DNA of 28,938 bases from a virus (lineage: Duplodnaviria > Caudoviricetes). The position numbers and the translations under genes were made by a program. Below the pieces are notes generated by a model. The model was not told the DNA's origin, did not search any database, and saw only the letters and a program-made list of their open reading frames with translations. The number at the start of each line of letters is the position of its first letter. Position 1 is the stretch's first letter. Of this stretch, positions 7,644-26,877 are shown piece by piece. The stretch lies in the IMG/VR virus record IMGVR_UViG_3300010236_000013, positions 1 to 28,938 of that record; one strand, given 5' to 3'.

Positions 7644-7705
7644 GCTATTGAGGTTTGCATTTCAACCGATAAGTATTGTCAATACTATGTATTGAGGTAC
7701 ATGCA

Positions 7706-7752
7706 AAAAGCGTGCCAGGCGTTCATGCCATGAGACGCCTGGCTTTTACTTT
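7706..7752. terminator. bidirectional intrinsic terminator
   Basis: GCCAGGCGT...ACGCCTGGC stem with an A-run on the left and a T-run on the right, just past the repressor stop. Confidence 0.65.
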
Positions 7753-7765
7753 GTGTGAGCTGTTG

Positions 7766-8692: not shown

Positions 8693-8753
8693 AATAATAC
8701 CCCCATCAACAAAATTCGACATACGAAACGCACGTAAAACGCACCAACGGTAA

Positions 8754-8786
8754 ACACTTGACGTGTGTACACTTAAAGTGTATACT
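8754..8786 (+). promoter_or_regulatory. sigma-A type promoter overlapped by two palindromic operators
   Basis: TTGACG (8758-8763), 17 bp, TATACT (8781-8786); ACAC-N5-GTGT at 8754-8766 and 8769-8781. Confidence 0.75.
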
Positions 8787-8807
8787 ATAATTAGAGGTGA
8801 TTAATGC

Positions 8808-8999
8808 GTGCGTCCAAAACTGTTAGAATTAAGACAACTACTTAAGAAGTCACAAGAACAAATGGCGCGTGACATTGGGATTAGTACCTCACACTGGCGT
8901 CAGTTAGAGCTTGGTACACGTAATCCGTCACTTGGATTAGCTACTAAGATAGCAAAACTGGCTGACGCTACAGTTGACCAAATGTTCCCAGAAGAGTAA
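8808..8999 (+). CDS. Cro-like XRE HTH protein
   Basis: 63 aa, SQEQMARDIGISTSHWRQLELGTRNPS; GAGGTG RBS. Confidence 0.9.
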   Translation: MRPKLLELRQLLKKSQEQMARDIGISTSHWRQLELGTRNPSLGLATKIAKLADATVDQMFPEE

Positions 9000-9059
9000 T
9001 ATCTAGCAATATCTATTTTACAGCATAACACATTCAGTGTCAACACAATGTGAAAGGGA

Positions 9060-10406
9060 GTGTTCGGCTTTATTCCTCTATTATCCCCAAAATGCGTGCA
9101 TACTATAAAGTACCCTTACAGTTTGAGCGACTACCAAATAGAGGGCGTCCACTTCCTGGTGAACGCACAGCGTGCTATATTAGCAGATGATTTGGGGATG
9201 GGGAAAACAGCAACCGTAATAAGGGCATGTGCCGAAGTGGAAGCTAAGAACATCCTCGTAGTAGCAAAGAAATCTCTAATAACCAACTGGTTAAGTGAGA
9301 TACGCAGATGGTCGCCACACGAAGTTGGTACCACATGGGCGGTCACTAACTACGAGCAAGTGGTAGCACATCTGGAGGATTACTTAGCATGCACATACGA
9401 CGCCATTGTGGTAGACGAGGCTGCATACATACGCAACAGAAAGGCAAAGCGTTCCAAGGCTATTCACAGGTTAAGCCGTAAAACAAAATACATGTGGTTG
9501 GTGACAGGCACTCCAGTAGTGAGTGGGCCTTGGGATTTGTGGAGCCTTTTACGCGCGCTGTACCCAAGTAGGTACACCAGCTTCTGGCGGTTTGCTGACC
9601 AACACTTCCACCTTGATCGAGGGCGTTTTGGAATTGAGATAGGTGCTGTCAAAGACAGCGACGCACTCGCCAAAGAAGTAGCTCCTATAATGATCAGACG
9701 TACTAAGGAGTTGCTGAACCTTCCAGCGCTGAGTTTTGAGAACATATACATTGACCTTGGTAGTGCCCAGCGCAAACTCTATAAAACCCTCTGTGATGAT
9801 TTAATGACACAGGTTGTTGGAGAGGATGGTTCATTAAACATTGTGGTAGTGCCCTCACTGTTGGCACTTATGACAAGGCTTCGGCAAGTAGTTTGTTCAC
9901 CAGCTTTAGTGGGTGGTAAAGATGTGAGTTCTAAGACTGACGCTCTTATGGATTTGTTGGAGGAACTTACATGTACTCACAAGGTGCTGGTGTTTTCTGC
10001 ATTTGCGGAGTACATAAAACTACTGGTCCCTAAGATGGCGTCGGCAGGTTATCATCCACAAGTCATCACCGGGAGCTGTTCCACTCAGCAACGTAACGAT
10101 GCTATGTATGACTTCTGGAATGTTGATAAGTGCAGAGTACTGATTGGCACCACTGGTGCGATGGGAGAAGGACTGAACATGCAGAACGCTGACGTAGTTA
10201 TATTTACGGACAGCGACTGGACTCCAGCGGCGAATGAACAGGCATATAGTAGAGCGTATAGACGAGGCCAGAAGAAGCCAGTGCATGTGATTAAACTTAT
10301 CGCACGTGACACGGTTGATGAGTATGTGCAGCGTGTTATCGACAATAAGGAACGACTGGCGTCTGTGGTTACGCACGCGATGAGAAAAATTTATGAATCG
10401 AGGTGA
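9060..10406 (+). CDS. SNF2-family (SF2) helicase
   Basis: LADDLGMGKT, VVDEA, TGTP, GEGLNMQ, QAYSRAYRRGQ. Confidence 0.93.
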   Translation: MFGFIPLLSPKCVHTIKYPYSLSDYQIEGVHFLVNAQRAILADDLGMGKTATVIRACAEVEAKNILVVAKKSLITNWLSEIRRWSPHEVGTTWAVTNYEQVVAHLEDYLACTYDAIVVDEAAYIRNRKAKRSKAIHRLSRKTKYMWLVTGTPVVSGPWDLWSLLRALYPSRYTSFWRFADQHFHLDRGRFGIEIGAVKDSDALAKEVAPIMIRRTKELLNLPALSFENIYIDLGSAQRKLYKTLCDDLMTQVVGEDGSLNIVVVPSLLALMTRLRQVVCSPALVGGKDVSSKTDALMDLLEELTCTHKVLVFSAFAEYIKLLVPKMASAGYHPQVITGSCSTQQRNDAMYDFWNVDKCRVLIGTTGAMGEGLNMQNADVVIFTDSDWTPAANEQAYSRAYRRGQKKPVHVIKLIARDTVDEYVQRVIDNKERLASVVTHAMRKIYESR

Positions 10407-11289
10407 AGTAATGGAGCTTCATGCTAGTCAGATTAGAGATTACAAAACTTGCCCGCGAATGTACAAATACAAGTATGTGGACAACATAGTACCACGTGTA
10501 GACAATCCCAAGCTATTCCTCGGACGAGGCGTGCACGCTGGGATTGCGGCGTATTACGAGGGCAAAGATCCCTTGAAAGCATTTGATGACTGGCTTGAAG
10601 GAGCTGCTAGTAAAATACCTGATGATGCAAGGCCAGCAGATGTGGAAAGCATCATTGAACCAGTCCGTTTAGGACGTAAGCTGGTTGGTGCATACGTTGA
10701 CTTCGCACGTCAGAACGATGATTTTGAAGTAGTGGCTATTGAGCAGGACTTCCGAACGCCTGTGTGGTCAATGAATCCAGATACATGTGAGCTTGAAGTA
10801 GTGCCTGACGTATTCCACAGGGGGCGGTTGGACGGTGTAGTACGTGATAAGAATGGAAGGCTTTGGGTATTAGAGCATAAAACGTGTGCTCAGTTCACGA
10901 ATCCAATACTGCTACAGAAGTCCGAGCAGACAGGCTACTACGTGCTGGCGTGTAAGCAGTTGTTTGATGAACCAGTTGTAGGTACTATCTACAATCTTAT
11001 TAGGAAGGTTGATCCGGCAAAGGCACGCACAGATATGATTAGGCGTGAACTTGTACCTTGTAATGATTATGAAGTTGGTTCATACATTAACAGGTTGTAC
11101 AACGCTTACAACCGCATAGTTACTGATGACATAATGGACCCCTCCTCTGGACAGCACTGCACTTGGATGTGCCCTTACAGAGTACTATGTACTGGTGAAG
11201 ATGATGGGAGCGACGTAGCTTCTGTTGTTGATGAGCTGTTTATGGCGCGTACTCCTTATGAAGATGCTGACGAAGAGGAGGTAGCATAA
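10393..11289 (+). CDS. PD-(D/E)XK (RecB/Cas4-like) exonuclease with probable Fe-S cysteines
   Basis: S.I..YK.CPR, GRLD, LEHKT, QTGYY, C-terminal CTWMCPYRVLC. Start may be ATG 10411. Confidence 0.88.
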   Translation: MNRGEVMELHASQIRDYKTCPRMYKYKYVDNIVPRVDNPKLFLGRGVHAGIAAYYEGKDPLKAFDDWLEGAASKIPDDARPADVESIIEPVRLGRKLVGAYVDFARQNDDFEVVAIEQDFRTPVWSMNPDTCELEVVPDVFHRGRLDGVVRDKNGRLWVLEHKTCAQFTNPILLQKSEQTGYYVLACKQLFDEPVVGTIYNLIRKVDPAKARTDMIRRELVPCNDYEVGSYINRLYNAYNRIVTDDIMDPSSGQHCTWMCPYRVLCTGEDDGSDVASVVDELFMARTPYEDADEEEVA

Positions 11290-11291
11290 CA

Positions 11292-11651
11292 GTGACAAAG
11301 ATATATGAATTTCCGAAGGCAGAAGATCGTGAAATTGTTGAAGGTGCAGTTGCTACATACATTACTACACCAGTAGACTTGCTGCGTGATCTTATGACGG
11401 AAGAAATTAGTAGAGTGTTGGAGAGGTACCACATAAGTAAGCTATTCCTGCGGGATTATGCGGTGCTTATGTGTGAAGACATAGTTATATTTGAGGCAAT
11501 GACACCTGACGATGATGGTTCATGCCCAGCATGTGGAAGCAAGACATGCTCTAGGCGATTGCTTAATATCATCAACAATGTGGAACATTATGGATGCCAC
11601 TGTGGGGCATTGTATTACAGAAAAAATATGAAAGTGGGGAATAGCATTTGA
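11292..11651 (+). CDS. hypothetical zinc-ribbon protein
   Basis: CPACG...CHCG; GAGGAGG RBS. Confidence 0.7.
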   Translation: MTKIYEFPKAEDREIVEGAVATYITTPVDLLRDLMTEEISRVLERYHISKLFLRDYAVLMCEDIVIFEAMTPDDDGSCPACGSKTCSRRLLNIINNVEHYGCHCGALYYRKNMKVGNSI

Positions 11652-12403
11652 GTAAAGTAATCACACCAGTAAAGCCACCACATCCTAAGATACGGCGTGC
11701 TTCTGAAAGGATTACATTCTGCAAGTGCTTGATATACGGTGATTCGGGGGTCGGTAAAACCTATCTAGGGGCTACGGCCCCCGACGCACTCATAGTGCTT
11801 ACAGAACCTGCAGTTGCAGATACTACACTTAACAGGGTAAGGATGGACCTGGGTATTGATCCTGGTGTTTGGGAGTTGGGTGATGGTGATGATCTTACAG
11901 CAGTTGTTGATTATATATCTAAAGGAGATCATCCTTACAAGACACTGGTGATTGATAGTTATACTGACGTGTTCCGGCGCGCACTGCGAAAGATATTAAA
12001 TGATGCAGTATCTAAGCGGTCGTCACATGATGAGTTCGTTCCTGAGCAGGGTGACTGGTTCAGAGTGGCAGAGAAGATGCGTATGGAAATAAGGATGTTG
12101 CGTGATCTTCCAATAGATGTGGTACTTATAATGCTTGCATTTGACATACGTGGAGAGAGTAAGCGAGTACCTTACATCCAGCCCAAGAACCTGGCACTTG
12201 AAATGCCACAGTATTTCAACATGGTTGGGTACCTTGGAGCAGTTACTGAAGGAGGTGAACGAATCCGTAAATTGCTTGTTAGTCCTACTGATGACAGGCA
12301 GGCTAAGAACCCAGGTGGTATGTTGCCTGATATAATTGACAACCCCAACCTGAGTGAAATCTTCAAATTAATTAAACATGAGGAGGAAGAAAATATTGCC
12401 TGA
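11648..12403 (+). CDS. AAA_24 / Sak4-like ATPase (phage recombinase)
   Basis: Walker A GDSGVGKT, Walker B LVIDS, AKN motif; lies between nuclease and SSB-like gene. Confidence 0.85.
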   Translation: MSKVITPVKPPHPKIRRASERITFCKCLIYGDSGVGKTYLGATAPDALIVLTEPAVADTTLNRVRMDLGIDPGVWELGDGDDLTAVVDYISKGDHPYKTLVIDSYTDVFRRALRKILNDAVSKRSSHDEFVPEQGDWFRVAEKMRMEIRMLRDLPIDVVLIMLAFDIRGESKRVPYIQPKNLALEMPQYFNMVGYLGAVTEGGERIRKLLVSPTDDRQAKNPGGMLPDIIDNPNLSEIFKLIKHEEEENIA

Positions 12404-12830
12404 TTTACTATTCAATTATAATGCATCTGATGGGGAAGGTGCAGAGCCTCTACCGAAGGCTGTGTACCCTGCGGTTATTGACACCAGCAAATCAGAGGTT
12501 GGAGAGACAGACGCTGGCACTTACGTGACTATTAGTTTCATAATCTCTGAGCCTAATGAGTTTTCTGGTAGGCGCCTGACCGTGCGTTATTACCTGCATG
12601 ATAAGGCTGTTTGGAAATGGAACAAGTTCTTATACAACCTTGGTATTGCACCTGACAAAGATGGGCAATCCCGTGTAAACACTGACATGCTTAATGGACT
12701 GCCTTGCAAGATTTCAGTTAAACCAAACACAAACAAATCCACTGGTAAAACTTACAACGACGTTGACGACGTATTTGCTACTGACGACACACTCGCCAGA
12801 GCACGTGCAAAGAAGACATCAAATTTCTAA
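12396..12830 (+). CDS. DUF669-like single-stranded DNA-binding protein
   Basis: PLPKAVYPAVI...F.I......GR...LNGLPCKISV...YNDV pattern; position after Sak4-like gene; TTG start after GAGGAGG. Confidence 0.7.
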   Translation: MPDLLFNYNASDGEGAEPLPKAVYPAVIDTSKSEVGETDAGTYVTISFIISEPNEFSGRRLTVRYYLHDKAVWKWNKFLYNLGIAPDKDGQSRVNTDMLNGLPCKISVKPNTNKSTGKTYNDVDDVFATDDTLARARAKKTSNF

Positions 12831-13260
12831 TTTTACAGTCCTCGGTATAGATCCAGGGAACACCACAGGGTGGGGGCTTGTTGAGGTTCCACATACAGTT
12901 TTATTCGCTGGACAAATAAATTCACGTCAGGCGTTAGTGGATTTAATCAACAGATACCTACCAACCACAGTGGTTATCGAAGCCTTTCGGCTTTATCCCT
13001 GGAAAGCACAAGCACAGTCGTTTTCTAGTATGATCCCAGCAGAATTAATTGGAGTAGCAAAGGCCACGTGCGATGCGCTCAACATTTCATTAATTGAGCA
13101 GCCAGCTAGTGCGCGGAACATAATTACTAAGCGCGTCCTTGTAGCAACAGGCGGGTGGAAGGTTACAACAAACCTTCCACACGCTAGGGACGCGGTACGG
13201 CACGCGCTCTACTACTGCCGAAAGGTTTATCCAGAGGCATTCTTGGAGCTGCTTGCATGA
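12805..13260 (+). CDS. RuvC-like Holliday junction resolvase
   Basis: VLGIDPG.TTGW, VVIE, HARDA motifs. Start uncertain (GTG 12805 more plausible than ATG 12694). Confidence 0.8.
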   Translation: MQRRHQISNFTVLGIDPGNTTGWGLVEVPHTVLFAGQINSRQALVDLINRYLPTTVVIEAFRLYPWKAQAQSFSSMIPAELIGVAKATCDALNISLIEQPASARNIITKRVLVATGGWKVTTNLPHARDAVRHALYYCRKVYPEAFLELLA

Positions 13261-13568
13261 CACGCGTACTGTGGTTATCAAGGCACAAGCCGCTGCTTTC
13301 ACAAGTCAAGGAACTGCGAAAGCTATTTGGCCGAACAAAGATTATTCAGAAGTCAGTCACGATAGATTCAGGGCAGGACTTGCTGAGACTTATGCTGGAA
13401 AACAACTGCACTGAAGCCGTTGTAATTTTACCAGTGACACTTTTACAAAGCGCAATAGAGTGCGGTGTTAGGCCATTGATCGCGGTGCTTGACCGTAACA
13501 ATGGGCAGCACAGACACTTTAAAAGATTAACACACATTAATGTGACGTTGGAGGATATGCAAGGATGA
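13257..13568 (+). CDS. small alpha/beta protein resembling Csx16/Csx20-type ring nucleases
   Basis: VLWLSRH.....Q..EL and VILPVTL.....CGVR.L..LD. ORF is well supported; function is inferred only. Confidence 0.5.
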   Translation: MTRVLWLSRHKPLLSQVKELRKLFGRTKIIQKSVTIDSGQDLLRLMLENNCTEAVVILPVTLLQSAIECGVRPLIAVLDRNNGQHRHFKRLTHINVTLEDMQG

Positions 13569-14485
13569 GTGAATATTTAGTTGGTTCTACAATAACGGAT
13601 TTGTTTGTGGTTAGGGATGCCAGTATAAATACTGCGAGCAATGGCAGCCCTTACTTACAACTAAAATTGTTCAACGGGAGTACGGAAATTCCCGCTAAAA
13701 AGTGGAATTACAATGGACAAATCCCTGCTGCAAACACAGTAATTCAAGTGACGGCTCAGGTTAGATTATTTAGGGACCAAATACAATTCAATATCAGTGA
13801 GTGGGATTTGCCAAAGCCAGGTGAGTACGATCCCAGCAAGTTCATACCTGTGTGTCCTATAGACAAAGACACTTTAGTGGAAGAGTTCCTTGATTTAAAG
13901 TTTTTAGTTAGTGACACATACTTTAATGATATATTGAATGCTTTTATTATAGACCATTTATTTGTAGAGTTCACTGTAGCGCCAGGAGCACAGGGAATAC
14001 ATCACGCATACCTACATGGTCTGCTAGAGCATAGTGTGGGCACAACGCAAAAAGCTTTATATATGGCTGAGTACGCAACAAACAGAGATTTACTTATTAC
14101 TGGTGGACTCCTCCACGACATTGGAAAGATATATGAGTACGACTGGTCGGGTTGTACCATCACCAGAACACCTGCTGGAAAATTAATGGGGCATATACTT
14201 ATGGGGATGATGATGCTTGATCGTTTAGTAATAGAACATGGGGTGTCTAAAGACCCTGAAAAGTACATGCTCCTTTCCCACTTAATAGCGTCACATCATG
14301 GGCGGTTGGAGTGGGGATCACCAGTTGAACCACAGACTAGGGAAGCTGTTATACTTCATACCGCTGATATGCTGGATTTCCAGTTCAATGCTATTGATAA
14401 GGCATATGCTGAAACACCAGCCAGCAACGAGTTCACAGTCGGAGCGTTGGGAATTGGACGCCAATTTTATAAAGGAGGAAATTAA
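13565..14485 (+). CDS. yhaM: YhaM/Cbf1-like OB-fold + HD-domain 3'-5' exonuclease
   Basis: N-terminal OB fold (GSPYLQLKL...AKKW); HHAYLHGLLEHS, LLHDIGK, SHHG..EWGSP, ADMLD. Confidence 0.9.
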   Translation: MSEYLVGSTITDLFVVRDASINTASNGSPYLQLKLFNGSTEIPAKKWNYNGQIPAANTVIQVTAQVRLFRDQIQFNISEWDLPKPGEYDPSKFIPVCPIDKDTLVEEFLDLKFLVSDTYFNDILNAFIIDHLFVEFTVAPGAQGIHHAYLHGLLEHSVGTTQKALYMAEYATNRDLLITGGLLHDIGKIYEYDWSGCTITRTPAGKLMGHILMGMMMLDRLVIEHGVSKDPEKYMLLSHLIASHHGRLEWGSPVEPQTREAVILHTADMLDFQFNAIDKAYAETPASNEFTVGALGIGRQFYKGGN

Positions 14486-14488
14486 ATT

Positions 14489-14743
14489 ATGAATTTACCA
14501 GATTTAGAATTTGATTATGATGATGATAGACCATTCAAAAGCGCAACATTCAATTCAAGCGCGGGTGGGTCTGTTAGAATTATAGATAAGATAAAAGGTG
14601 GATACGGTAATAAGAGTGGTGTATCTATTATCTTTGATGATGGTGCAGGGATATGTCATAAATCAATCGCCAGGGACTTTGACAAGCCACACTTCCGTGC
14701 ATTTATAGACCTTTGCGAGAAGGCCTACAAACAGTTGCCTTAA
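14489..14743 (+). CDS. hypothetical protein
   Basis: 84 aa, AAGGAGG RBS. Confidence 0.7.
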   Translation: MNLPDLEFDYDDDRPFKSATFNSSAGGSVRIIDKIKGGYGNKSGVSIIFDDGAGICHKSIARDFDKPHFRAFIDLCEKAYKQLP

Positions 14744-14744
14744 G

Positions 14745-17057
14745 ATGTACGTTACACTAGCCACCGGAAAAATAGTCCGGCCACATGGTGCCGACTGTAG
14801 TAAGTGCGGATTAGCCGACTTCACTTGTGTTCGTGGTAGGGGGCCAGATAACCCGAAGCTGGTAATTGTCGGTGAGTGTCCTGGCGAAAACGAAATAAAG
14901 CGAGGGGTGCCATTCGTTGGGCGTGCTGGTAAGCTGCTTGACAAAGCGTTGGAAGAAGCTGGACTAACAAGGGATGAGTGCTACATAACGAATACGTGCT
15001 TGTGCATGACAGTGCCAACACGTACCCCAAAAGCCAAGGAAGTAGCGTGCTGTGTAAACAGGTTATATGAAGAAGTCAAATCAAAAAGACCACGTGTTGT
15101 TCTGGCGCTTGGGAAGATTGCGTACAAAGCACTTCTGAATATCAACAATGCAATGGCAGACGCACGTGGTACGGTTCATTACAAGGACCAGCTCGGCGCA
15201 TACGTGGTTACGACTTACCATCCTGCTGCCATACTACGAAACCCAAGGCTTTACCGTGACATGGTGAATGATTTCATTCGTGCAAAGGAAGTGCTTGATT
15301 GGCCTGTCGGTGGAAGAACTTCAATAGAAATAAAACATCGTGTGCTGAACGACGAAGACGAGGTGATAGAGTTCCTAACACAAACAGAGAGGAACCAGGA
15401 CGTTTCATACGATGTGGAAACTGCAAGCGATGGCAGCCTACTGTGCATAGGCTTATCAGTAAGTCCATGTGAAGCAGTAGTGCTGTCGCAGCGTGCAGTA
15501 GATACTGTTAACCACACGTTGTTGAATGATTGGTTAGCTAACAAGACTTGTATAGCGCACAACGGCAAGTTCGATATGCGTGTAATGTGGAAGAATGGAT
15601 TCCCTGATGTACGCACTGGCGCAGATACCATGCTCCAGGCGTATGTTATGGATGGATCAGTTGGTGGTCATGGATTGGAGCACTTGGTGCGTGAAGTCCT
15701 TGATTACCATGAACCTTGGAAATTAGTCATGCGCCCTTACAAGAAGAAGGGATTTGAGCACGCACCCGCTGATGTGTTGTATGACTACAACGCAAAGGAC
15801 GCGGCACTTACTCTGCTGTTAGCACGTAACCAGGAAGAACGCCTATCAGATGATGATAAACATGTACTTACCACATTAATGTACCCTGTAGCTGACGTAC
15901 TGGCTGAAATGGAACATCTTGGCGTGATGGTTGATGAGGATTACCTGAACCAACTAGATGTTGGATTGCGTGATGAATTAATTGGAATTGTGCAAGAAAT
16001 GTATGATTTGGTAGGGAAGGTTTTCAATCCAAACTCATGGCAGCAGTTGCAGAAGGTTCTGTATGATGATCTTAAATTACCAGTACCTGGATGGCTTGGG
16101 ATGAGGACCAATGAAGATGCGTTGGAATCAATACTGCAAACTGTGGATCACCCATTCCCAAAACTGTTATTGCGGTACCGCAACAGGAAGAAGTTCCACG
16201 GCACGTATGTTCGTGGTCTGATGAACGCTGCAGATAGCAACTGGCGAGTGCATACCACATTCAACCAGCACGTTACCGTGACAGGTAGGTTATCATCATC
16301 AAACCCTGTGAATCTGCAGAACATCCCGCGTGGTAAAGAGGCCAGAAATATTTTTATAGCTACCCCTGGATATGAACTTGTTGAAGTTGATTTAAGCCAA
16401 GCTGAGATTCGTGGCTGGTGTTGGTACTCCAGGGATGAAGTATTAAGAGGTGCAATAACATCTGGATTAGACACACACACAGCTACTGCGTGTTTGATGT
16501 ATGACCTCAAGCCGGAAGCAGTGACTAAAGAACTGCGTACTGATGCAAAGAGGTTGGCCTTCGCTACCCTTTATCAGATGCAAGCAGAAAGCTTGGCACT
16601 GGAATTAAACACTACAGTAGTACATGCAGTAGAATTGCAAGATAAATTCTTTGGTGCGTACTCACGTGGTCGTGAATGGATTAATGAAGTGCAGCAGCAG
16701 GTACTGCGTGATGGTTATTTCGTTACACCGTTTTGCCGCACGCTGCGCTTCCCTATTGCTGGAGACAAATCAAGTCTCATGCGTGATGCGGCTAATTGGC
16801 CTGTCCAATCATTAGCTTCAGATATAACTCTTACTGGTTTGTTGCGAATCCATGATCGTATTAAAGTTGGTGAACTTGGAGATACGAGAATGTTATTAAC
16901 GGTGCATGATTCGATATTAGTAGAAACTAAAGAGGATACTGGTGAGATTGCTTTAGCATGTCGAAATGAAATGGAACGAGATGTACTTGATGGTTATGTG
17001 CCTTTTAAAGCAGACGCAAAATATGGTAAGAGCTGGGGCGAAATGACTGACTGTTAG
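14745..17057 (+). CDS. polA: family A DNA polymerase with N-terminal family-4 uracil-DNA-glycosylase-like domain
   Basis: UDG: GECPG, PFVGRAG, YITN, TYHPAA. Exonuclease: YDVET, HNGKFD, YNAKD. Polymerase: TGRLSS, NLQNIP, DLSQAEIR, TVHDS. Confidence 0.95.
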   Translation: MYVTLATGKIVRPHGADCSKCGLADFTCVRGRGPDNPKLVIVGECPGENEIKRGVPFVGRAGKLLDKALEEAGLTRDECYITNTCLCMTVPTRTPKAKEVACCVNRLYEEVKSKRPRVVLALGKIAYKALLNINNAMADARGTVHYKDQLGAYVVTTYHPAAILRNPRLYRDMVNDFIRAKEVLDWPVGGRTSIEIKHRVLNDEDEVIEFLTQTERNQDVSYDVETASDGSLLCIGLSVSPCEAVVLSQRAVDTVNHTLLNDWLANKTCIAHNGKFDMRVMWKNGFPDVRTGADTMLQAYVMDGSVGGHGLEHLVREVLDYHEPWKLVMRPYKKKGFEHAPADVLYDYNAKDAALTLLLARNQEERLSDDDKHVLTTLMYPVADVLAEMEHLGVMVDEDYLNQLDVGLRDELIGIVQEMYDLVGKVFNPNSWQQLQKVLYDDLKLPVPGWLGMRTNEDALESILQTVDHPFPKLLLRYRNRKKFHGTYVRGLMNAADSNWRVHTTFNQHVTVTGRLSSSNPVNLQNIPRGKEARNIFIATPGYELVEVDLSQAEIRGWCWYSRDEVLRGAITSGLDTHTATACLMYDLKPEAVTKELRTDAKRLAFATLYQMQAESLALELNTTVVHAVELQDKFFGAYSRGREWINEVQQQVLRDGYFVTPFCRTLRFPIAGDKSSLMRDAANWPVQSLASDITLTGLLRIHDRIKVGELGDTRMLLTVHDSILVETKEDTGEIALACRNEMERDVLDGYVPFKADAKYGKSWGEMTDC

Positions 17058-17065
17058 ATGTTGAT

Positions 17066-17182
17066 GGTGTACCATATTTAGATAGTAACTCAGTATGCAA
17101 GAGTGTGCCACTTGTACTTAGAAATCCTATATATGATAACGTGCCCGCAGGAAAAATAAACTCATTTACGATTAGCGAATCA
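17066..17182 (+). ncRNA. TIGR-like tandem guide-RNA array, upstream block (3 units of 36 nt)
   Basis: Edge repeats at 17066/17102/17138/17174 and loop repeats at 17084/17120/17156, separated by 9-nt unique spacers. Confidence 0.85.
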
Positions 17183-17207
17183 AAAATAAAAACAAAAGGA
17201 GAATATT

Positions 17208-18095
17208 ATGGATAATGTAAATGGTCTGAGAACAGCGGTAAGAAGTTTTTATGATGCACAAAAAATGAGGATAATGGTTGGCAATAGATTAGTAGCCAAC
17301 TTGTATAGCACAATGGGGCAGAAGCCAGGGACAAAGTTAGATGAGTCACTCACCACTGAAGGGAAGGAGCTATTAAGAAGTATTACTGTGGAGTATGCAC
17401 AGATTACTGGTGCAGTAGCCAATCCCACAGCGCGCAATCTTGCCAGATATTTCCGCACGCATGAAGGTGTTATTACTAGGCCATTTGAGTATGAGTTAAC
17501 ACATATGTATCACAGCTTGCTTGATGCAGAACATGAATTGAGTAAGACAATAGCTTTTGAAGTTGAGCAGTTTGATATATGGGAAGATTTCTTGAAGGGC
17601 GTGCGCGGGTGTGGCCCATTAATGGCTGCAGTGATCATATCAGAGTTTGATCCTTATAAAGCCAGATACGCTTCTAGTTTCCACAAGTACGCTGGCCTTG
17701 ATGTTGCACCTGATGGCCGCGGACGTGGGAAGTACAAGGACCACTTGGTGAAGGTGCAATACACAAACAAGAAGGGTGTCACGGATGAAAAGTCCTCCAT
17801 AACATTTAACCCATTCTTGAAGACCAAACTGTTAGGTGTTTTAGGACCATCGTTCTTGAAGACTGGTAGTGATTATGCTAAAACATACTACGACTACAAG
17901 CATAGGTTGGAGAATCACGCAGTCTACAAGGACACTACACCTATCCACAGGCACAAGATGGCCCTGCGATACATGGTGAAGTTATTCTTGATTGATCTCT
18001 ATGTGGCGTGGCGCACGCTGAAAGGTCTGGAAGTTGCACCGTCGTATGCTGAGGCAAAACTTGGAATCATACACGGTGGTATTGAAGCAGCTTAA
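17208..18095 (+). CDS. tasA: TasA-like Nop-domain (IS110-related) RNA-binding protein without nuclease domain
   Basis: N-terminal helix (FYDAQKMRI..GNRL), GVRGCGPLMAAVIISE, SSFHKYAGL, NPFLK, HRHKMALRYMVKLFL..LY..WR; no DEDD RuvC or HNH; flanked by 36-nt arrays; AAGGAG RBS. Confidence 0.85.
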   Translation: MDNVNGLRTAVRSFYDAQKMRIMVGNRLVANLYSTMGQKPGTKLDESLTTEGKELLRSITVEYAQITGAVANPTARNLARYFRTHEGVITRPFEYELTHMYHSLLDAEHELSKTIAFEVEQFDIWEDFLKGVRGCGPLMAAVIISEFDPYKARYASSFHKYAGLDVAPDGRGRGKYKDHLVKVQYTNKKGVTDEKSSITFNPFLKTKLLGVLGPSFLKTGSDYAKTYYDYKHRLENHAVYKDTTPIHRHKMALRYMVKLFLIDLYVAWRTLKGLEVAPSYAEAKLGIIHGGIEAA

Positions 18096-18320
18096 TGCCA
18101 CATTATATTAAAAAAGACACCCATATTAGCTGAATGCACCAGAGTTACCGATAAACCCATTGCTGATTAGTGAGCCTTTATGTAAAATGTACACAGCTAC
18201 ATCAAGCTAACCATTGTGAAATAGAAAACCTTTCGTTGAAAGTGCGTCGTCTTCTACAATTAGAAAACCAAATGGAATTAACGAATCTAAGATTGGAAGA
18301 AGACCAAAGGATTTTAGTTA
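18092..18320 (+). ncRNA. TIGR-like tandem guide-RNA array, downstream block (about 6 units)
   Basis: Edge repeats at 18092/18133/18169/18205/18241/18280 (remnant at 18316); loop repeats at 18115/18151/18187/18223/18262/18298; spacers 9 nt except two. Confidence 0.85.
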
Positions 18321-18322
18321 AG

Positions 18323-18378
18323 AAATTCCCTGGACATACATATTCTGCTATGTTACGATATGTGTGTTTGGGGAATTT
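18323..18378 (+). terminator. long RNA hairpin closing the array (terminator or processing signal)
   Basis: AAATTCCCTGGACATACATAT pairs with ATATGTGTGTTTGGGGAATTT, 21 bp including four G-U pairs. Confidence 0.6.
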
Positions 18379-18400
18379 TGTATTTCAGGAGGCTACACAG

Positions 18401-18568
18401 TTGGATAAATTATACATTATAGGTTTAGTTGCTGGTGGATTGTATGCACAGACGTACCTTACGCGTGAAAAATGGCTGGAGTACAACAAAAGCCAGAAGA
18501 TAACAGCGGCTGCAGTACTGTTTGTCATATTAGCAGCAACCATAACGGCGCATATAATGCTATCTTAG
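18401..18568 (+). CDS. small 55-aa membrane protein
   Basis: AGGAGG RBS at 18387-18392, TTG start; two hydrophobic segments. Confidence 0.65.
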   Translation: MDKLYIIGLVAGGLYAQTYLTREKWLEYNKSQKITAAAVLFVILAATITAHIMLS

Positions 18569-18673
18569 ATGTAACGTCACAGGTCAAATCCAGTTGCGTT
18601 GCGCTATTTTCGGCATGGTATCACACCAACCACTATAAAATCTCTTGATATTTGCGAACCTCGAAAGCGTTTT

Positions 18674-19435
18674 TTAGAAGGTTACTTCAATTTTCTTTTC
18701 ACGACCACCTAATAGCAGCCTTGGCACAGTTTTACACGAATGTGGGTATCCCTTCGCCGCGGCGTATCCTCCACGGAACATAAAAGCGTTTGTGTTTATA
18801 AAATTCTGTTCCACTTCAATTAGATTATTATTGTAAATGTCGGGTATAAAGAATGGGCGCTTGTGAACAAGCGGAGTGTGGGTGTGGCTGATGAAGTAAA
18901 TATTAGCCAGTACGATATTGCCAAGACTTTCCAGCGTATTCATCTTGCTGCCTGTCGTGCGCGCTGAACTCCAGCCATGTGTAGCATAAACCGTGTAAGC
19001 TATGCGCTTACCATTTGAACCCTTACCGAGAGTTATCTTCAAGTACGCTTCATCACCTGAGTAATGGCACCCCAACTTATCAGCTAATATTGCAGATAAA
19101 TTCAAGCCCACCTCTTTATAAATTCGCCGTTCATGGTTGCCATCATTAGCCGTGAGTATGCGGTCTTTAATTGGCAGCAGTAATTTAGTGGCTACATCTA
19201 ATTGTTTTTGTGGTGTAAGCGTCTCGCCGTAGACATCACTAACAGAATTTTTAATAGCGGTGTTCAGTAAATCACCATTCAAAATTACGTAGCAGTTTGG
19301 CGTACTTTCGATCCACCTTCGGTATGTTAAAAAATATTTAGTATCAAACAGTGGATCACCAATATGTAAATCACTAATTCCTACCAAGTAAATATATTCC
19401 AATTCCTCAGATAATTCAACGTGATGTATCTTCAA
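18674..19435 (-). CDS. calcineurin-like metallophosphoesterase
   Basis: SDLHIG, GDL, GNHE, THG, SHTH motifs. Confidence 0.9.
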   Translation of the reverse strand: MKIHHVELSEELEYIYLVGISDLHIGDPLFDTKYFLTYRRWIESTPNCYVILNGDLLNTAIKNSVSDVYGETLTPQKQLDVATKLLLPIKDRILTANDGNHERRIYKEVGLNLSAILADKLGCHYSGDEAYLKITLGKGSNGKRIAYTVYATHGWSSARTTGSKMNTLESLGNIVLANIYFISHTHTPLVHKRPFFIPDIYNNNLIEVEQNFINTNAFMFRGGYAAAKGYPHSCKTVPRLLLGGREKKIEVTF

Positions 19436-19467
19436 CGTCTCGTCTCCTTAATTTTCGGAAATAAAAT

Positions 19468-19494
19468 AAAGCCCTGATGTACCAGGGCTTTTTA
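19468..19494. terminator. bidirectional intrinsic terminator
   Basis: AAAGCCCTG-ATGTAC-CAGGGCTTT with A/T runs on both sides, downstream of the endolysin. Confidence 0.7.
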
Positions 19495-19557
19495 CTTATT
19501 CTGTGATATTCTTTTATTAGTGCGAGTTTCTCCCAGTTCGTGGGCGTTCCATAGCAA

Positions 19558-20115
19558 TCACCCCGTTAAACTCAGTCCTAGATATGAAGCAATACCGCTT
19601 GCTATTGCCCATGCAGCCCTGTTCTGGAAGTCGGCTGTCTTTAGCAATGCTTCCTCTTGTGGGTTGCTAATAAATGCCACTTCCACAAGTGATGCCACAG
19701 CGTTGGTATTACGCAGAACGTACAGATCGGTTCTGCGCTTCACACCGCGGTTGGTTAGTGCGACAGAAGAAAATAATCGGTTTTGGATTCCTTCTGATAA
19801 ACGCTTTCCAGCAGCGCTGTAGTACAGTGTTTCCGTGCCGTGTGCAGAAGGATTGCTGAATGCGTTGCAATGAATTGAAATAAAGCATGTTGCACCAGCT
19901 TTGTTACTAACAATACAGCGCGCACGCAAATCCTGTGACGTAGTTAACCCCTGTGATGTTGTGCTTCTACGTGTGAGTACTACGTTGCATACAGGTTTTA
20001 GGTACCCTTCCACACGTTTTGCAATTTGTACAGCAATGTCAGCCTCTTTGGTCTTAGTTGGTCCCACAGCGCCGGACTCGCAACCAGCATGTCCTGGATC
20101 AAGAACTACAATCAT
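19558..20115 (-). CDS. N-acetylmuramoyl-L-alanine amidase (Amidase_3) endolysin, catalytic domain only
   Basis: VLDPGH, E, FISIHCNA, LYVLR, LVEVAFISN. Start reassigned to ATG 20115 (GAGGAGG RBS). Confidence 0.93.
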   Translation of the reverse strand: MIVVLDPGHAGCESGAVGPTKTKEADIAVQIAKRVEGYLKPVCNVVLTRRSTTSQGLTTSQDLRARCIVSNKAGATCFISIHCNAFSNPSAHGTETLYYSAAGKRLSEGIQNRLFSSVALTNRGVKRRTDLYVLRNTNAVASLVEVAFISNPQEEALLKTADFQNRAAWAIASGIASYLGLSLTG

Positions 20116-20801: not shown

Positions 20802-21839
20802 CTACAAAACATTTGCTGATTGTAATACGCGTTTCATAGCACTCATACGTTCCGGTGAAGCATTAAGCTCAGTAGAGTAAAGGTCTAAGAATTTCTTGAG
20901 ATTGCCTTCTTTTAACAGTGCCCACGCACCACCCTCAGCTAATGATTCTATTGGGCCCCCAGCAAGTGCATAGGGTATGCCCCCGCCTTCCCAACTACCT
21001 CGTTCCCACGACTTCGGGTATGATAATTGTGGTCTATTCTCCCACAACGTGTGGTCGATGCCACTACCAATTCCGTTACGATAATACTCGCGTATATCTT
21101 CATACGACGGGAATCTTTTTAATATTTCCACGTGTGTTGGGTGATAGTCAGGATAACCAGAGTTATTATGTATAGGCCATCTTTCCACACCGTAGAGATA
21201 GTCCAATATATCATAGTACGCTTGAGGATTATTGTTGGCGATTGTGTGCATTAATTCATGTGCTATGATGCGGGGGGAATCATTCTTATAAGCAAATGTG
21301 TTAGGATGCACTAATGTTACGGAGTTATTCGACCAATTAGCATAGGCATTTGTACCAGGATGTAATGACGCATATGGATCACTAGCTTGTGTGACTAACC
21401 TAATTTCGTTAGGGGTACTGACCGCTTCTTTAGGCAGCGCATTTAGTATATTAACAACGTACTTAGAATTTTTGCGCAATGATGGATTATAAAATTCACT
21501 TGTAGGGAGTTCAATTTTAGTCCGGAAACCGCCAGATAAATAGTTATCTAAATCTTTATTTAAACTATTGAAAGTAGTCTCATTCTGTTTAGTGCGCTGT
21601 TTCATAGCATTATAAACACGATCAATATCATCTAATGTTATGGAACTTAACTTTCTCCTTGCTAAACTAGCGAAACTATTCCCGTTTTCACTAGACACCT
21701 TGCCTATGCTATCAATCAACTTCCTCACGTCACCCATTTCTCGTTTGGTCAAAAGCCCCGCAACAAGAGGAAGGCCGACACCCGTGATTGTGTCGGCATT
21801 CTCACTTAACTTTCTTTTAATTGCTTCCCAATCAGCCAA
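20802..21839 (-). CDS. virion-module protein with HExxH zincin motif
   Basis: IIAHELMH plus downstream ESLAE. Confidence 0.7.
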   Translation of the reverse strand: MADWEAIKRKLSENADTITGVGLPLVAGLLTKREMGDVRKLIDSIGKVSSENGNSFASLARRKLSSITLDDIDRVYNAMKQRTKQNETTFNSLNKDLDNYLSGGFRTKIELPTSEFYNPSLRKNSKYVVNILNALPKEAVSTPNEIRLVTQASDPYASLHPGTNAYANWSNNSVTLVHPNTFAYKNDSPRIIAHELMHTIANNNPQAYYDILDYLYGVERWPIHNNSGYPDYHPTHVEILKRFPSYEDIREYYRNGIGSGIDHTLWENRPQLSYPKSWERGSWEGGGIPYALAGGPIESLAEGGAWALLKEGNLKKFLDLYSTELNASPERMSAMKRVLQSANVL

Positions 21840-21841
21840 GG

Positions 21842-24800
21842 TTAGTACCCCCTCTGTTCTATCTCTCTAACAGTTGGTATGGTCGTACCCTGCACGTCTC
21901 TGGCGTAACGCATTTTCTCCTGCAGTTGGCGGCGTCTGTTAATAGCCTCAAGCAGTAATTGTCTGCGCGGGTCCGACCTGTAGAAGAATGATCCAACCAC
22001 AGGTACTTGCCGTAGTGTGGGCGGCACTTTACTCCCAGTAGCTACATCTGGTGCGCTGGACGTGTTGAACAGTGTATCAGCCACACTTCTACCAAGTGAT
22101 GCGTCTCCACCTGTAGCGCCAGATGTTTGCCCAGCTAGACGTGTGAGCAGTTCTGCAATCTCACGCCCAGCTCCACCAGTTTGCTGGATTGCGTAGTCAG
22201 CGGTAGCTGGTAATTGGTAAGGTTCTCCAGATTTCTGGCCAGGAATAAATGGTAAATAATACCTACCACGTGCGCCAGGATATGATTCTATTTCTTTGCC
22301 GCCAATAGTTTTATTCATTACCAACTCGAAGGGAGTCTTAACTAGTGGTGATACCATACCCAATAAATCCGTTGGATTAGTGAGCATCCCCAACTGTGTA
22401 GCTGGCAAATCAAGACGCAGGTATTTTTCATAGCCTTCGTCGTCCGTGCCAATAGGTATAGCCAAATCTTCCTTAAGCCAATCCGGTGTGTCGTCTATAC
22501 CAGATGCTTGTTGCGCCTCATCAAGCGCGTGTTTAATTCGTGTGTACTTGGCTGGATTCTTAAACAGCGTCTCCAATTGTAATGGAATATTCTTCCTAGT
22601 AAATGTATAAAAGGGTATGAATGTTCGTATAGCTTTCTCAAACGGCGTGATGTCTCCATAATCAAACAAGTATTTTCGCACGCTCTCAGCAGCATCCATT
22701 GGGCTAAGTCCCTGTGCCCTCTTACCAATGTAGTGGGCCAGCTTGCTCCAAGTCTCAATAGCATTACCTGTGGAACGCCCAAACTTGAATGGATGTCTTA
22801 TTGGTGTGCCTTTAGCCGCAGCTTTTAATAATCCACTTGGTTTATCCATACCTTCCATGATGTCTTCCATCATTTCAACCATGCCTGACTTTGACTCACC
22901 ACGGAAGAATCCAAACCCCACAAGTCCGTGTCTAACGAAGTCATCATACAACTCCTGCCCATTAAGCATGGTGTTGCCTATCTTAAATGGTGCGTCTGAG
23001 CCTTCCATAATTCGTAGTGCCGATGCGTAGTAAGCTGGATTGGTAATACCTGCCAGATAATTATTGAAGAAGTTACCTGACAAATTCCGCATGTGGAACG
23101 AAGGAACCACAGAGGTTACTATTGATTTCCACATGTTCTGCACTTTATTAAACCCATCCATAAACTCACGTGCGCCACCTGTGGTTACGTAGATGTCCAT
23201 TGCACGTTCAATTGACCGCGCTATATCAGGGTGAACAACTTTATCGTTTGGGAAATACGCTGACTGAATACCTCGCCATTGTGTTAAGCGTTTTGCCTGT
23301 TCAGCATCTCCCGCATCTCTAGCAGCTCTTAACAATTTTGCGTGCTCGGCAGCATCCATAACGACCTGTGTATCCTGCTTGCTCAAAGTTTTAAACATAT
23401 CTCTAAGCAGCCTAACCTTTACACCCTCCATTTCACGTACACCAGCAATTACTGCGATGTCCTTGATTGGGTGAAGCCCCATTTTCTCAGCTTCTTCTAA
23501 CGTAGGAATCATACGGCGATACTGGAATCCGCCCTTTGGTGAAAGTCCCGCTCTCTTTGCAGCTTGTGCAATACTCCACTCAGTCATAACCGAGCGAATT
23601 TTTTCTTGGGGATCATCGTAAATATGATAAATGTAATTCGGTACAGGATCGAACTTGACCCCAGCACTCAGGTCTGCCATTCCACTGGTCATTAACTGGT
23701 CCTTTGCAAGTTGCGCTGCTTTGTTAATATCTGTCATGGAAGCGCCAGAAGCGAGTGCACGCTGCATAATGTCTTGCTGCCCTTTAATATCAACTACACT
23801 TGCTGACTGCGCCATATCAATCATCGCGCGGCGGTTAGAGTACTTGGTGAGTTTATTGTGCATCTTCTGATCGATCATACCAGCCAAATCTTGTGGGTCC
23901 ATTGTAGGTACTTTCTTGGCTAGTTTATATTCGCCCTTACGTTTCAAGTTGCGCACTATATCTTTCACAGCTTTGTCGTTGTAGATGCTACTGGACATAC
24001 TGCTGTGAATTTTATCAAAATCAGCGCCGAAAGATTGTCGTACTGAAGCCTCCAAATCTTCAGGCTTTAACTTGGCTAAACGCCGTGCGGTTTGTATTGG
24101 CGCTTCAATGCTGTACGGCACAACCTCTCTTGCAGCTTTCGGCACATCCTTGAACATTTCATTAATCTTCATTCCAGCAGCCATCTGCTCGCCATAAATA
24201 GCGCGGAATGTGGCATGCGCCGATTCGGACATTTCTCTTACTGCGTCACGTTGTGCTGCATTTTCTGCTGCGCCATAACTCGCATATGAATTATCAAGTA
24301 AAGGACCAATTTTATCTATGAGTTTTTTACCGCCAGAAATTACACCAAGGTGTTTATCCAGTGCGCCAAGCCCCTCACGGACGATGGTACTTCCTGCCAC
24401 ACGTCCCATTGTTTTAGCTATACCCTTAACAACGGGCGCGCCCACATAGGTTAGTGGGTCCATAGCTACGTCTATGCCAAACCCAACTACTGCCCTGGAG
24501 AATGGGTTTTTTATATCAGTCGGTTTAATAAAGTCACTACCATACACATGTTCTTTACCAGACAGCCCCTCAAGTAGACCAGTCATAAAATCATTCTCAT
24601 TGTCAAGTGAATCTTGTATTGCATTAGCAACTGCATTTCGAGGGCGGTCAAGTATATCCATTGCTTTAAGCAGTAGGTTGGTGCGCTTTTCAGGCGCTGG
24701 TATCTCAACACCTGCAGCATTTAAGCGCAACTCGCTGTTAGCGATCTCTTTATTTACTTGATCAAGATAATCTTCATCTTCATCAGTACTGCTATCCTTG

Positions 24801-24856
24801 TATAATGCGTCCATACCCATTGCTTTAAGTCTTCTATTAAGTGATTCAATGCTCAT
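21842..24856 (-). CDS. large (1004 aa) putative internal virion / DNA-ejection protein
   Basis: Largest late gene; LDPL.Y-type N-terminal motif (MDPLTY), LFDYGD.T.FE...FIPFYTF; position next to lysis cassette. Function inferred. Confidence 0.65.
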   Translation of the reverse strand: MSIESLNRRLKAMGMDALYKDSSTDEDEDYLDQVNKEIANSELRLNAAGVEIPAPEKRTNLLLKAMDILDRPRNAVANAIQDSLDNENDFMTGLLEGLSGKEHVYGSDFIKPTDIKNPFSRAVVGFGIDVAMDPLTYVGAPVVKGIAKTMGRVAGSTIVREGLGALDKHLGVISGGKKLIDKIGPLLDNSYASYGAAENAAQRDAVREMSESAHATFRAIYGEQMAAGMKINEMFKDVPKAAREVVPYSIEAPIQTARRLAKLKPEDLEASVRQSFGADFDKIHSSMSSSIYNDKAVKDIVRNLKRKGEYKLAKKVPTMDPQDLAGMIDQKMHNKLTKYSNRRAMIDMAQSASVVDIKGQQDIMQRALASGASMTDINKAAQLAKDQLMTSGMADLSAGVKFDPVPNYIYHIYDDPQEKIRSVMTEWSIAQAAKRAGLSPKGGFQYRRMIPTLEEAEKMGLHPIKDIAVIAGVREMEGVKVRLLRDMFKTLSKQDTQVVMDAAEHAKLLRAARDAGDAEQAKRLTQWRGIQSAYFPNDKVVHPDIARSIERAMDIYVTTGGAREFMDGFNKVQNMWKSIVTSVVPSFHMRNLSGNFFNNYLAGITNPAYYASALRIMEGSDAPFKIGNTMLNGQELYDDFVRHGLVGFGFFRGESKSGMVEMMEDIMEGMDKPSGLLKAAAKGTPIRHPFKFGRSTGNAIETWSKLAHYIGKRAQGLSPMDAAESVRKYLFDYGDITPFEKAIRTFIPFYTFTRKNIPLQLETLFKNPAKYTRIKHALDEAQQASGIDDTPDWLKEDLAIPIGTDDEGYEKYLRLDLPATQLGMLTNPTDLLGMVSPLVKTPFELVMNKTIGGKEIESYPGARGRYYLPFIPGQKSGEPYQLPATADYAIQQTGGAGREIAELLTRLAGQTSGATGGDASLGRSVADTLFNTSSAPDVATGSKVPPTLRQVPVVGSFFYRSDPRRQLLLEAINRRRQLQEKMRYARDVQGTTIPTVREIEQRGY

Positions 24857-26877
24857 TACTTCACCTTCTTAATTTTGAAACCATTAATATGTAGCATTTC
24901 ACCTAACTTATTCTTAAATTTCCAAGTATCAGCACTATTGGCTATCTCGTATGGTTCAATATTAGGATGTGGTACAGCAAATAATTCTTTAATTAGTGCT
25001 TGGAATTGTTTAACGTCATTATACTTAGGATTTATTTCTTTCATCTTGGCATGTAATTTCTTAAGTGTGACTGGTTTATCCGTTACACCGCCAGTCAATA
25101 CATCATAGATTGGTTTTACTTTCTTGTATGCTATGTCCTGTGTTTTCTTAATAGCTTTCTGTGGCATCCCATTAAGCTTTTTGGCGTTAACAGTTGGTGC
25201 TTCAGCCGCCACAGGTTTTGCTGCAGTAACTTTCTTTGGTTTGGGAAGTAACTCCGCAAGTTTTGTCTCCGCTGCAGGAGCAGCTTTTTGAACGCCGCGC
25301 ACCTGTGGAACTGACGCCGATTTTAATATGTCGGAAATATTACCAACTTTCGGAGTTGGTACCAGCAAATCTTTTATAGCTTGTTGTTCCCCACCAATAG
25401 GTACGCCCTCACTGAGTGTAGTACCTACACGTTTTGGTGTGTCAGCCACATAGTGCATTAGCTCATTTAACACGTTGGTACGTGCTAACGGTGCGTTGGC
25501 TATTTTTATGTTGTTACCTGCAGTGAAAAGATTCTCTATGTCCTGCACGTGACCTGGTAAAGTCTTGTTCACATACTCGCTCAATTTGTTGTAATCATAG
25601 CCGTGTTTTTCAGCTATTGCACGTACGTAATCATCAAACTTATTTGTTGGGCGTCCAGCCGCGTTCCACAGTGTTGCTGCTTCATCACGCACTTCATCCA
25701 TCATGCTGTTAAACAAGTCATGTGCGGCATTCATTTTCAAGTGCGCTATCTTGGTAATATCCTCTGTAGGCACTACTGCTGGTAGTAATTCAGGAGGTGT
25801 GGCTTCTTGCGACACCTGTGGGGGTCTAACAGATTCTGCTGATTGCTCAAGCGCCTGTGCAGGTATAACATCACCTTCAGGATTTACAATAGTTGGTAAC
25901 TCACTGGCACGTGATGATGGAGAAAATCTGTATTCACCTACATTCTTACGCTCTTTAACAGCCTGGTTCATTAGATCGCTGTATTTGCCAAACAGTTCAT
26001 CACGCAATGCCTGTGCACTGCTTACCTTTTCAGCAGCAGCGTCTGACAGTTTCTGCCCAATACCAGCCGCGTATTCCTGTGGCGCATTACGTCTGGAAAA
26101 GTTTTGCATTGATTGTAGAATGTCCTCTGCAGTAGGCCCTGCAGTGACAGATTCTTGTGAAGCAATGGCTTCTTTACCCCTTTTAAGTGCATTTGGAATT
26201 AACTTATCGAGTCCAACACGGCGCGCAATAGCGCCAAGTGCAGGGGCTACAGCTTCGCCAGCTCCACCGAGTGCAGCTATTGGTATCCCTACTGATAAAG
26301 CATCACCGACAGTACCACCTTCAAGCATTTCTTTGGTACTATGAGCACCACCAAGTGCGCCACCTACACGCGCCATACGTGATAACAACTTACCAGTACC
26401 TGCCAGTTTGCCCCAAGGCAACAGGAGACCAGCAATACCGCCGAGTGTACCACCCGCTATGTTGGAAAGTGTAGCTGTTTCAGGCACTGCTTTTGGCGGA
26501 GCACTAAGTAGTCCTGCTGATGCAAAATCTTTTGCTGTTTGCAACGTGTCGTAAACAGTACCTCCTAGAGTTGTGTCTGGTGCATTTGACAAATCATAGT
26601 ACTTACGCAAATCACGTGGTATATCCTGGTATTTGAAGTCTTTTGCATTTTCGACAGCGTAGCGAAGTGCCATACCACGTTCACGGTCGGATATACTACC
26701 TTTTGACTGACCACTATTGACTTTATCGTAAGCAGCCTTACGTGCTGAAATAGCCTGATCGCTTGAAAACCAGGGTAGCCGTTTAGTAATATAATTTACT
26801 GGGCCGTTTATAGGATTTAACTGTGTGAGTATATCAGCTATGTCCTGTAAATCGGTGAACTTACGTTTGTTAGCCAT
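24856..26877 (-). CDS. putative internal virion protein (673 aa)
   Basis: Gly/Ala-rich hydrophobic segment followed by Pro/Ala/Lys-rich linkers; coupled to the 1004-aa gene. Confidence 0.65.
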   Translation of the reverse strand: MANKRKFTDLQDIADILTQLNPINGPVNYITKRLPWFSSDQAISARKAAYDKVNSGQSKGSISDRERGMALRYAVENAKDFKYQDIPRDLRKYYDLSNAPDTTLGGTVYDTLQTAKDFASAGLLSAPPKAVPETATLSNIAGGTLGGIAGLLLPWGKLAGTGKLLSRMARVGGALGGAHSTKEMLEGGTVGDALSVGIPIAALGGAGEAVAPALGAIARRVGLDKLIPNALKRGKEAIASQESVTAGPTAEDILQSMQNFSRRNAPQEYAAGIGQKLSDAAAEKVSSAQALRDELFGKYSDLMNQAVKERKNVGEYRFSPSSRASELPTIVNPEGDVIPAQALEQSAESVRPPQVSQEATPPELLPAVVPTEDITKIAHLKMNAAHDLFNSMMDEVRDEAATLWNAAGRPTNKFDDYVRAIAEKHGYDYNKLSEYVNKTLPGHVQDIENLFTAGNNIKIANAPLARTNVLNELMHYVADTPKRVGTTLSEGVPIGGEQQAIKDLLVPTPKVGNISDILKSASVPQVRGVQKAAPAAETKLAELLPKPKKVTAAKPVAAEAPTVNAKKLNGMPQKAIKKTQDIAYKKVKPIYDVLTGGVTDKPVTLKKLHAKMKEINPKYNDVKQFQALIKELFAVPHPNIEPYEIANSADTWKFKNKLGEMLHINGFKIKKVK

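Follow-up and report, generated by a model that had tools for sequence, protein, structure and literature searches.

A dual-repeat TIGR-TasA locus with a short, heterogeneous guide array in a phage segment

Results

Genomic context

The window (the whole stretch of DNA analysed, 28,938 nucleotides) is a phage segment in which a gene for a 295-aa protein, tasA (17208-18095, + strand), lies between two arrays of short repeats. The + strand genes ahead of tasA encode an integrase, a repressor, an SNF2 helicase, a PD-(D/E)XK nuclease, a Sak4-like protein, an SSB, an HD protein and a uracil-DNA glycosylase fused to a family A DNA polymerase (UDG-PolA; 14745-17057, +). In the TasA phage record G007, the homolog of this fusion appears as three pieces. 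The amidase and holin genes are on the - strand and face the tasA locus. Beside these lysis genes are encoded proteins of 1004, 673 and 345 aa (21842-24856, 24856-26877 and 20802-21839; - strand), for which we found no Pfam match at the cut-off and no PHROG match.

The integrase is annotated as a tyrosine integrase (Pfam/PHROG), and the closest matches of both the amidase and the integrase are Bacillota phages. When positions 1-20000 were used to look for a host in 401 genomes from the phylum to which genome G002 belongs and in 103 from its order, short or weak matches only were obtained, and no CRISPR array was present at the three loci inspected in this search. A tasA copy with identical sequence is carried by a 61,672-bp metagenome contig (LDZT01000007.1; L109). 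Judged by coordinates, the window appears to be the last 28.9 kb of this contig. One DNA sequencing run that carries the locus showed zero differences. Searches of the whole window with Rfam and ARAGORN returned no matches, and a promoter scan called 5 sites where chance predicts 5.2.

Architecture of the arrays

Both flanks of tasA read in a dual-repeat register of edge, spacer A, loop and spacer B, each of 9 nt, as the preliminary description had parsed them. The repeats and spacers that it quoted were all found in place when the sequence was re-read and printed in this register. The upstream array (17066-17182, +) begins 9 nt past the stop codon of the UDG-PolA gene. It holds three units, U1 (17066-17101), U2 (17102-17137) and U3 (17138-17173), and a closing edge (17174-17182); its edges start at 17066, 17102, 17138 and 17174 and its loops at 17084, 17120 and 17156. 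A Shine-Dalgarno-like AAGGAG, read from the sequence, is present before the tasA start codon (17196-17201, +).

The downstream array (18133-18319, +) holds five units, D1 (18133-18168), D2 (18169-18204), D3 (18205-18240), D4 (18241-18279) and D5 (18280-18315), and a truncated edge from 18316. Edges start at 18133, 18169, 18205, 18241 and 18280, and loops at 18151, 18187, 18223, 18262 and 18298. D4 is 39 nt long, and its 3-nt insertion moves the downstream register by 3. The core units of this array had been described correctly, and D4 had been concealed behind an ellipsis. A partial unit, consisting of a loop repeat (score 14.7) and spacer B, is in register with the downstream array (18115-18132, +). 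No recognisable edge is found 18 nt before it, where the edge position scores -25. Of the about nine guides proposed earlier, eight are thus complete units and the ninth is only partial. The claim that all spacers differ holds: the 18 are distinct, and the closest pair has 2 mismatches.

Periodicity was measured without a repeat model as identity at lags of 18, 36, 54 and 72 nt. This autocorrelation, one of the checks proposed at the outset, gave z 5.4 for the upstream and 6.7-6.8 for the downstream array, and 0 of 5000 letter shuffles reached either value. Among 5764 sliding 120-nt segments of the whole stretch, the two arrays rank first and second (0.176 and 0.161; next 0.125) and are therefore its two strongest 18/36-periodic stretches. 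The third-ranked stretch (28771-28890; 0.125) is well above the remainder and has no score with TIGR matrices. Matrices seeded from the window repeats and then refined on homolog arrays only placed the five best three-repeat scores, on either strand, inside these two arrays. Predicted folding of the arrays is not stronger than that of shuffled sequence (z about +0.9).

Two hairpins are present in this region. One, of 10 bp, lies across the tasA stop codon and is followed by an A/U-rich run (18076-18101, +; z -3.3); it is a possible terminator or RNA boundary, and it is the single site that a terminator scan called, where chance predicts 1.2. The other, of 23-25 pairs, directly follows the truncated last edge (18322-18379, +; -27.4 kcal/mol, z -5.5, 0 of 200 shuffles). 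It was not called by the terminator scan. The array transcript probably has its 3' end at this hairpin.

A single open frame of 132 aa (18170-18568, +) continues without a stop through all of the downstream array and its 3-nt insertion. It runs into a small hydrophobic ORF with a likely start at TTG 18401, behind GGAGG. The frame stays open in 2.6% of spacer shuffles, and 29 of 81 homolog arrays are open over four units. It is probably a by-product of stop-free repeats. The 132-aa ORF was considered as a component of the system and set aside.

The TasA protein

A sequence search of the PDB with the 295-aa protein identified TasH (E 1e-9) and TasR (E 1e-6). The AlphaFold model (pLDDT 91, from an alignment of 69 sequences) is nearly all helix and consists of a coiled coil and a Nop domain. 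The coiled coil begins at residue 4, and there is therefore no room for an N-terminal RuvC, HNH or DEDD nuclease. Foldseek ranks 1-10 are all TIGR-Tas chains, and IS621 appears only at E 2e-3. A wide fold search gave TasR (Z 19.9, rmsd 1.8, 195 aligned), TasH (Z 19.8, rmsd 2.8, 213 aligned), the IS110 protein ISCro4 (Z 14.2) and Nop5 (Z 7.6; 7.3-7.6 for Nop5/Prp31). In the comparison with Nop5, IS110 and Tas that the preliminary description had proposed, Tas is thus the closest in both sequence and fold. The model aligns to the TasR structure 9MTY from residue 111 of 9MTY and to ISCro4 from residue 125 of ISCro4. No RuvC, HNH or DEDD family is listed for any of the 69 homologs, and none is found in Pfam for the window protein. 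PF02371 is matched by 66 of the 69 homologs; the match of the window protein (E 5e-4) is below the curated cut-off.

No substitution of Tyr280 or His289 occurs in any of the 69 sequences. The two residues align with Y289 and H296 of SpTasH, which are named as its processing dyad (PMC13421893, as far as accessible). A Tyr/His dyad is described as specific to dual-repeat systems in the available text of a further study (bioRxiv 2026.09.09.750476). The IS110/Nop motifs G.G...A, AGL and H..A.R..K.FL, noted earlier from the sequence, are all found in the protein. The tasA gene is intact and keeps all invariant residues. Its mis-annotation as a transposase had been anticipated: PHROG 4285, labelled 'transposase', matches the product at E 4e-29. 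A full-length homolog with 38% identity in the cultured jumbo phage phiRSL1 of Ralstonia (NC_010811.2, 13237-14199) is likewise annotated 'transposase'.

Arrays at homolog loci

Arrays of at least three units flank 92 of 108 homolog loci and 0 of 108 on the reverse strand; these are the corrected figures, and they are not independent counts because the loci include near-duplicates. With matrices made from the window repeats alone, 74 of 82 homolog loci from viruses had an array, against 0 reverse-strand controls; 3 loci were mis-sliced in this count. The majority repeats of the homologs are AACGAGTCA or AGCGAGCCA for the edge and AGAAAACCA for the loop. In 7 of the 108 loci, units of the array lie both before and after the gene. 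Helicase homologs are present within 10 kb of tasA in 25 of the 108 and PolA homologs in 22, and an integrase homolog is near tasA in only 2.

The spacing between detected homolog units (L001-L108) is 36 in 1082 cases, and the next most common values are 73 (48), 74 (15) and 71 (14). Units of 37 nt are therefore frequent in the homologs, and the 39-nt unit of the window is of a rarer kind. The related arrays L001 and L084 share whole spacer pairs as well as single spacers, with order and partnership changed. A near-duplicate spacer is found within 51 of 86 arrays, and the window array is without any. These sequence relationships suggest that the arrays may grow by duplication, mutation and recombination.

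Repeat boxes

Of the 18 window repeats, all have C at position 8 and 17 have A at position 1. Positions 2 and 7 are able to pair in 14 of 18, and one loop has a T-A swap at this pair. Positions 3 and 6 are able to pair in 6 of 9 edges versus 2 of 9 loops. Across 974 homolog units, positions 2/7 are pairable in 93-95%, and positions 3/6 in 95% of edges versus 12% of loops. The window repeats thus carry the box C/D motifs in edges and loops alike, with the additional 3/6 pair mainly in edges, and they show the box-pairing pattern of the homologs more loosely. The box positions deviate at 5 of 54 sites compared with 42 of 162 overall (14 of the 42 expected; P 3e-4), a value that is partly circular, as the repeats were recognised by such positions.

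Target searches

The targets sought had the sequence of spacer A and then the reverse complement of spacer B, a geometry derived from the C-5 rule and the 8-nt 3' overhang given in the accessible part of PMC12045711; other geometries were also tested. Within the window, using three geometries and gaps of 0-2, the best self targets have 3-5 mismatches in the expected geometry, the same as shuffles. No spacers common to the window and the homolog arrays were found closer than 5-6 mismatches of 18. Across 1.42 Mb around tas genes of the family, 9 of 957 spacer pairs have a match with at most 1 mismatch, against 6-9 in controls. The TasA phage records G006 (20 guides) and G007 (3 guides), searched whole, gave no target beyond chance for their own guides.

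Exact scans of viral contigs covered three of the nine guides and gave 0 matches for D1, 1 for U3 (in a bilin-reductase gene, L134) and 2 for U2 (L135 and L136). These numbers are not above control, as an opposite-geometry U2 control of the same composition also gave 2. The first U2 match (L135:1501-1518) overlaps the 5' end of a phi29-like gp4 late-activator gene in a small phage, whose holin is 41% identical to the window holin. This sequence match is suggestive but within chance. If it is true, U2 would let the phage shut down the late programme of a rival. The second U2 match (L136:1501-1518) lies in an M28 peptidase gene of a 61.8-kb phage that shares with the window only a peptidase (30%) and a polymerase (27%). 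The other window guides match this phage at shuffle level (D2 with 2 mismatches).

A relative in Sporomusa aerivorans (L085) has 15 units, and one of its guides is encoded twice with a one-letter difference (9434-9469 and 9685-9720). Both spacers of this guide (9+9) are matched exactly, 2 bp apart, at L190:2244-2263 (at about 562.26 kb in genome G001). The matched site falls at the 5' end of an ORF for a FecCD permease. This ORF belongs to an iron-uptake and NifH-like operon and is divergently oriented to an AraC gene. Over the 15 guides, 0.011 such matches are expected. Among the controls, none of 208 cross pairs and none of 938 foreign guides matched, and 4 of 3000 letter shuffles did. In the part of the Sporomusa genome that was searched (2.40 of 6.50 Mb, 37%), this one guide matched exactly, its one-letter variant had 1 mismatch and the remaining 13 had 2-3, which is control-like. 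Nothing was found for the 15 guides in 400 kb around the Sporomusa integrase genes. We regard the FecCD match as a lead only, namely one low-complexity, post-hoc hit among many tests. On these sequence matches it seems improbable that TasA guides in this clade are directed to the 5' regions of specific genes, with gp4 (for U2) and FecCD (for Sporomusa) as genuine targets; if true, the two sites would be natural TIGR targets.

Discussion

Identity and published status

The sequence, fold, array architecture, box pairing, dyad and co-occurrence of arrays with homologs agree, and they support the identification of this locus as a dual-repeat TIGR-TasA system. The initial assignment to the nuclease-free Tas type is thus borne out. 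As a system the locus is nothing new: TIGR-Tas, its dual-repeat TasA subtype and the protein itself have all been published. The identical 295-aa protein is in Table S1 (ProteinInfo) of Faure et al. 2025 (PMC12045711) in at least five rows (cluster node7536node). These include LDZT01000007 49941-50829, which matches L109, and the coordinates 17207-18095, which match the window. The natural targets of TasA and the origin of its spacers are stated as open in the available text of PMC12045711 and bioRxiv 2026.09.09.750476.

Proposed mechanism

From this analysis we consider it likely that the nuclease-free Nop protein loads the guides of the eight complete 36-nt units, and we predict that it binds 18-bp DNA sites matching them and blocks transcription there without cutting. 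As judged from the characterised relatives, the arrays would either share a transcript with the replication genes or have a promoter close by. A TasA dimer would then cut the precursor within each edge repeat by means of Tyr280 and His289 to give 36-nt tigRNAs, and one such guide would be loaded per dimer. Spacers A and B would each pair with a different DNA strand over an 18-bp site, with no PAM. The bound complex would act as a roadblock that sterically blocks transcription. We think it most likely that the guides are aimed at DNA from outside this part of the phage, either rival mobile elements or host genes.

Several steps have precedents in the accessible parts of published work. FpTasA binds 36-nt RNAs (PMC12045711). 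DNA binding is reported for PlTasA (bioRxiv 2026.08.11.744272) and for MbTasA (bioRxiv 2026.09.09.750476). The stem-loop MbTasA and dead TasR repress transcription, and published repression is, in the available text of the same study, limited to these (bioRxiv 2026.09.09.750476). Activator fusions of FpTasA gave low activation only (bioRxiv 2026.07.30.739390 / 2026.07.30.739400).

Alternative explanations

We read the array, from its sequence, as old and unhomogenised and still under constraint. The main rival is partial decay, in which the protein would be a true TasA and most units would no longer give working guides. The window array is the most internally heterogeneous of the 89 scored (divergence 6.5, from 4 passing units; median 2.2), a ranking biased by the representation of the other arrays by high-scoring units only. 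Because of this heterogeneity, some units may not work. Its fit to the clade matrices is the second-lowest of 93, and it has 8 units against a homolog median of 13, one of them of 39 nt, besides the partial unit. The spacers have a GC content of 29%, compared with 43% for intergenic DNA elsewhere in the window; AT-rich targets and drift would each be consistent with this. Against decay, the box positions are preferentially kept (with the partial circularity given above), the 2/7 pair of one loop carries a T-A swap, and tasA retains every invariant residue. The array of the closest homolog in the genome collection (L083) is variable too, and the processed FpTIGR array, read by eye in the accessible Table S1 of PMC12045711, has the same kinds of box C variants. 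Decay appears unlikely to us, and it is still the most probable of the alternatives.

The other alternatives concern what the protein does. An architectural role, in which TasA would bend or anchor DNA for phage integration, replication or segregation and would not be a repressor, is an idea raised by Faure et al. in the accessible text (PMC12045711). It would suit a phage with a tyrosine integrase and a repressor, in which tasA follows a DNA polymerase gene, and also the helicase and PolA homologs close to tasA at other loci. However, such a role is quite improbable, given that no self target was found in the 29-kb window or in the whole of G006 and G007 and that integrase homologs are so rarely near tasA. 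A box C/D snoRNP-like action of the guides on RNA is very improbable; the Nop5/Prp31 fold similarity and a shared box C/D logic (PMC12045711, accessible text) speak for it, but the closest structures are DNA-bound Tas complexes, PlTasA and MbTasA bind DNA, and TasR is described as inactive on RNA in the available part of PMC12045711. The reading of the gene as a truncated IS110 transposase with incidental repeats draws on the sub-threshold PF02371 match and the PHROG label. It is refuted for practical purposes, because arrays co-occur with the homologs and the DEDD catalytic domain is absent from the model and from the listings of the homologs; in addition, Tas structures outrank IS110, and the describers of the family list this protein as Tas (Table S1, Faure et al.).

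The locus shows that a highly degenerate TIGR array is recognisable from raw sequence. It is usable as a test case for how much repeat drift TasA tolerates, and for comparing repression by a dual-repeat TasA with that by stem-loop TasA. Natural targets are better sought in the Sporomusa relative, a cultured strain whose complete genome is available.

Comparison with known systems

FpTasA from Flavonifractor plautii, a dual-repeat system described in the accessible part of PMC12045711, is a solo Nop protein of 295 aa, the same length as the window TasA. Its array is built of 9-nt edge, spacer, loop and spacer units, as in the window, and the FpTIGR repeats are similar by eye (edges AGTGTACCA-like, loops AGTAACCCA-like; Table S1). 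In contrast to that of FpTasA, the window array is split across the gene, short (8 units) and more heterogeneous.

SpTasH from Salicola phage CGphi29 (PDB 21KL, 9W04) has the Nop fold (Z 19.8) and the C-terminal Tyr/His pair in common with the window protein, whereas the latter is without an HNH domain, and its spacers are of 9 nt compared with 8 nt for SpTasH. TaTasR (PDB 9MTY) has the same Nop and coiled-coil fold (Z 19.9, rmsd 1.8), 36-nt units and 9-nt spacers. The window TasA differs from it in having no RuvC and in its box D, which is AG or AA where that of TaTasR is UG.

The stem-loop TasA proteins MbTasA and PlTasA are nuclease-free like the window TasA, and in the accessible text both bind DNA and MbTasA represses transcription. 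However, their guides are stem-loops, and the available sources describe no Tyr/His dyad in those clades, whereas the window protein has the dyad. The stem-loop TIGR type was considered for the window and ruled out, as the arrays fold no better than shuffles and the dyad is present. The IS110/IS621 bridge-RNA recombinases have a related RNA-binding domain (Z 14.2; weak PF02371 match). They differ in their DEDD catalytic domain, which the window protein is without, and in using one bridge RNA, where the locus described here has an array of guides.
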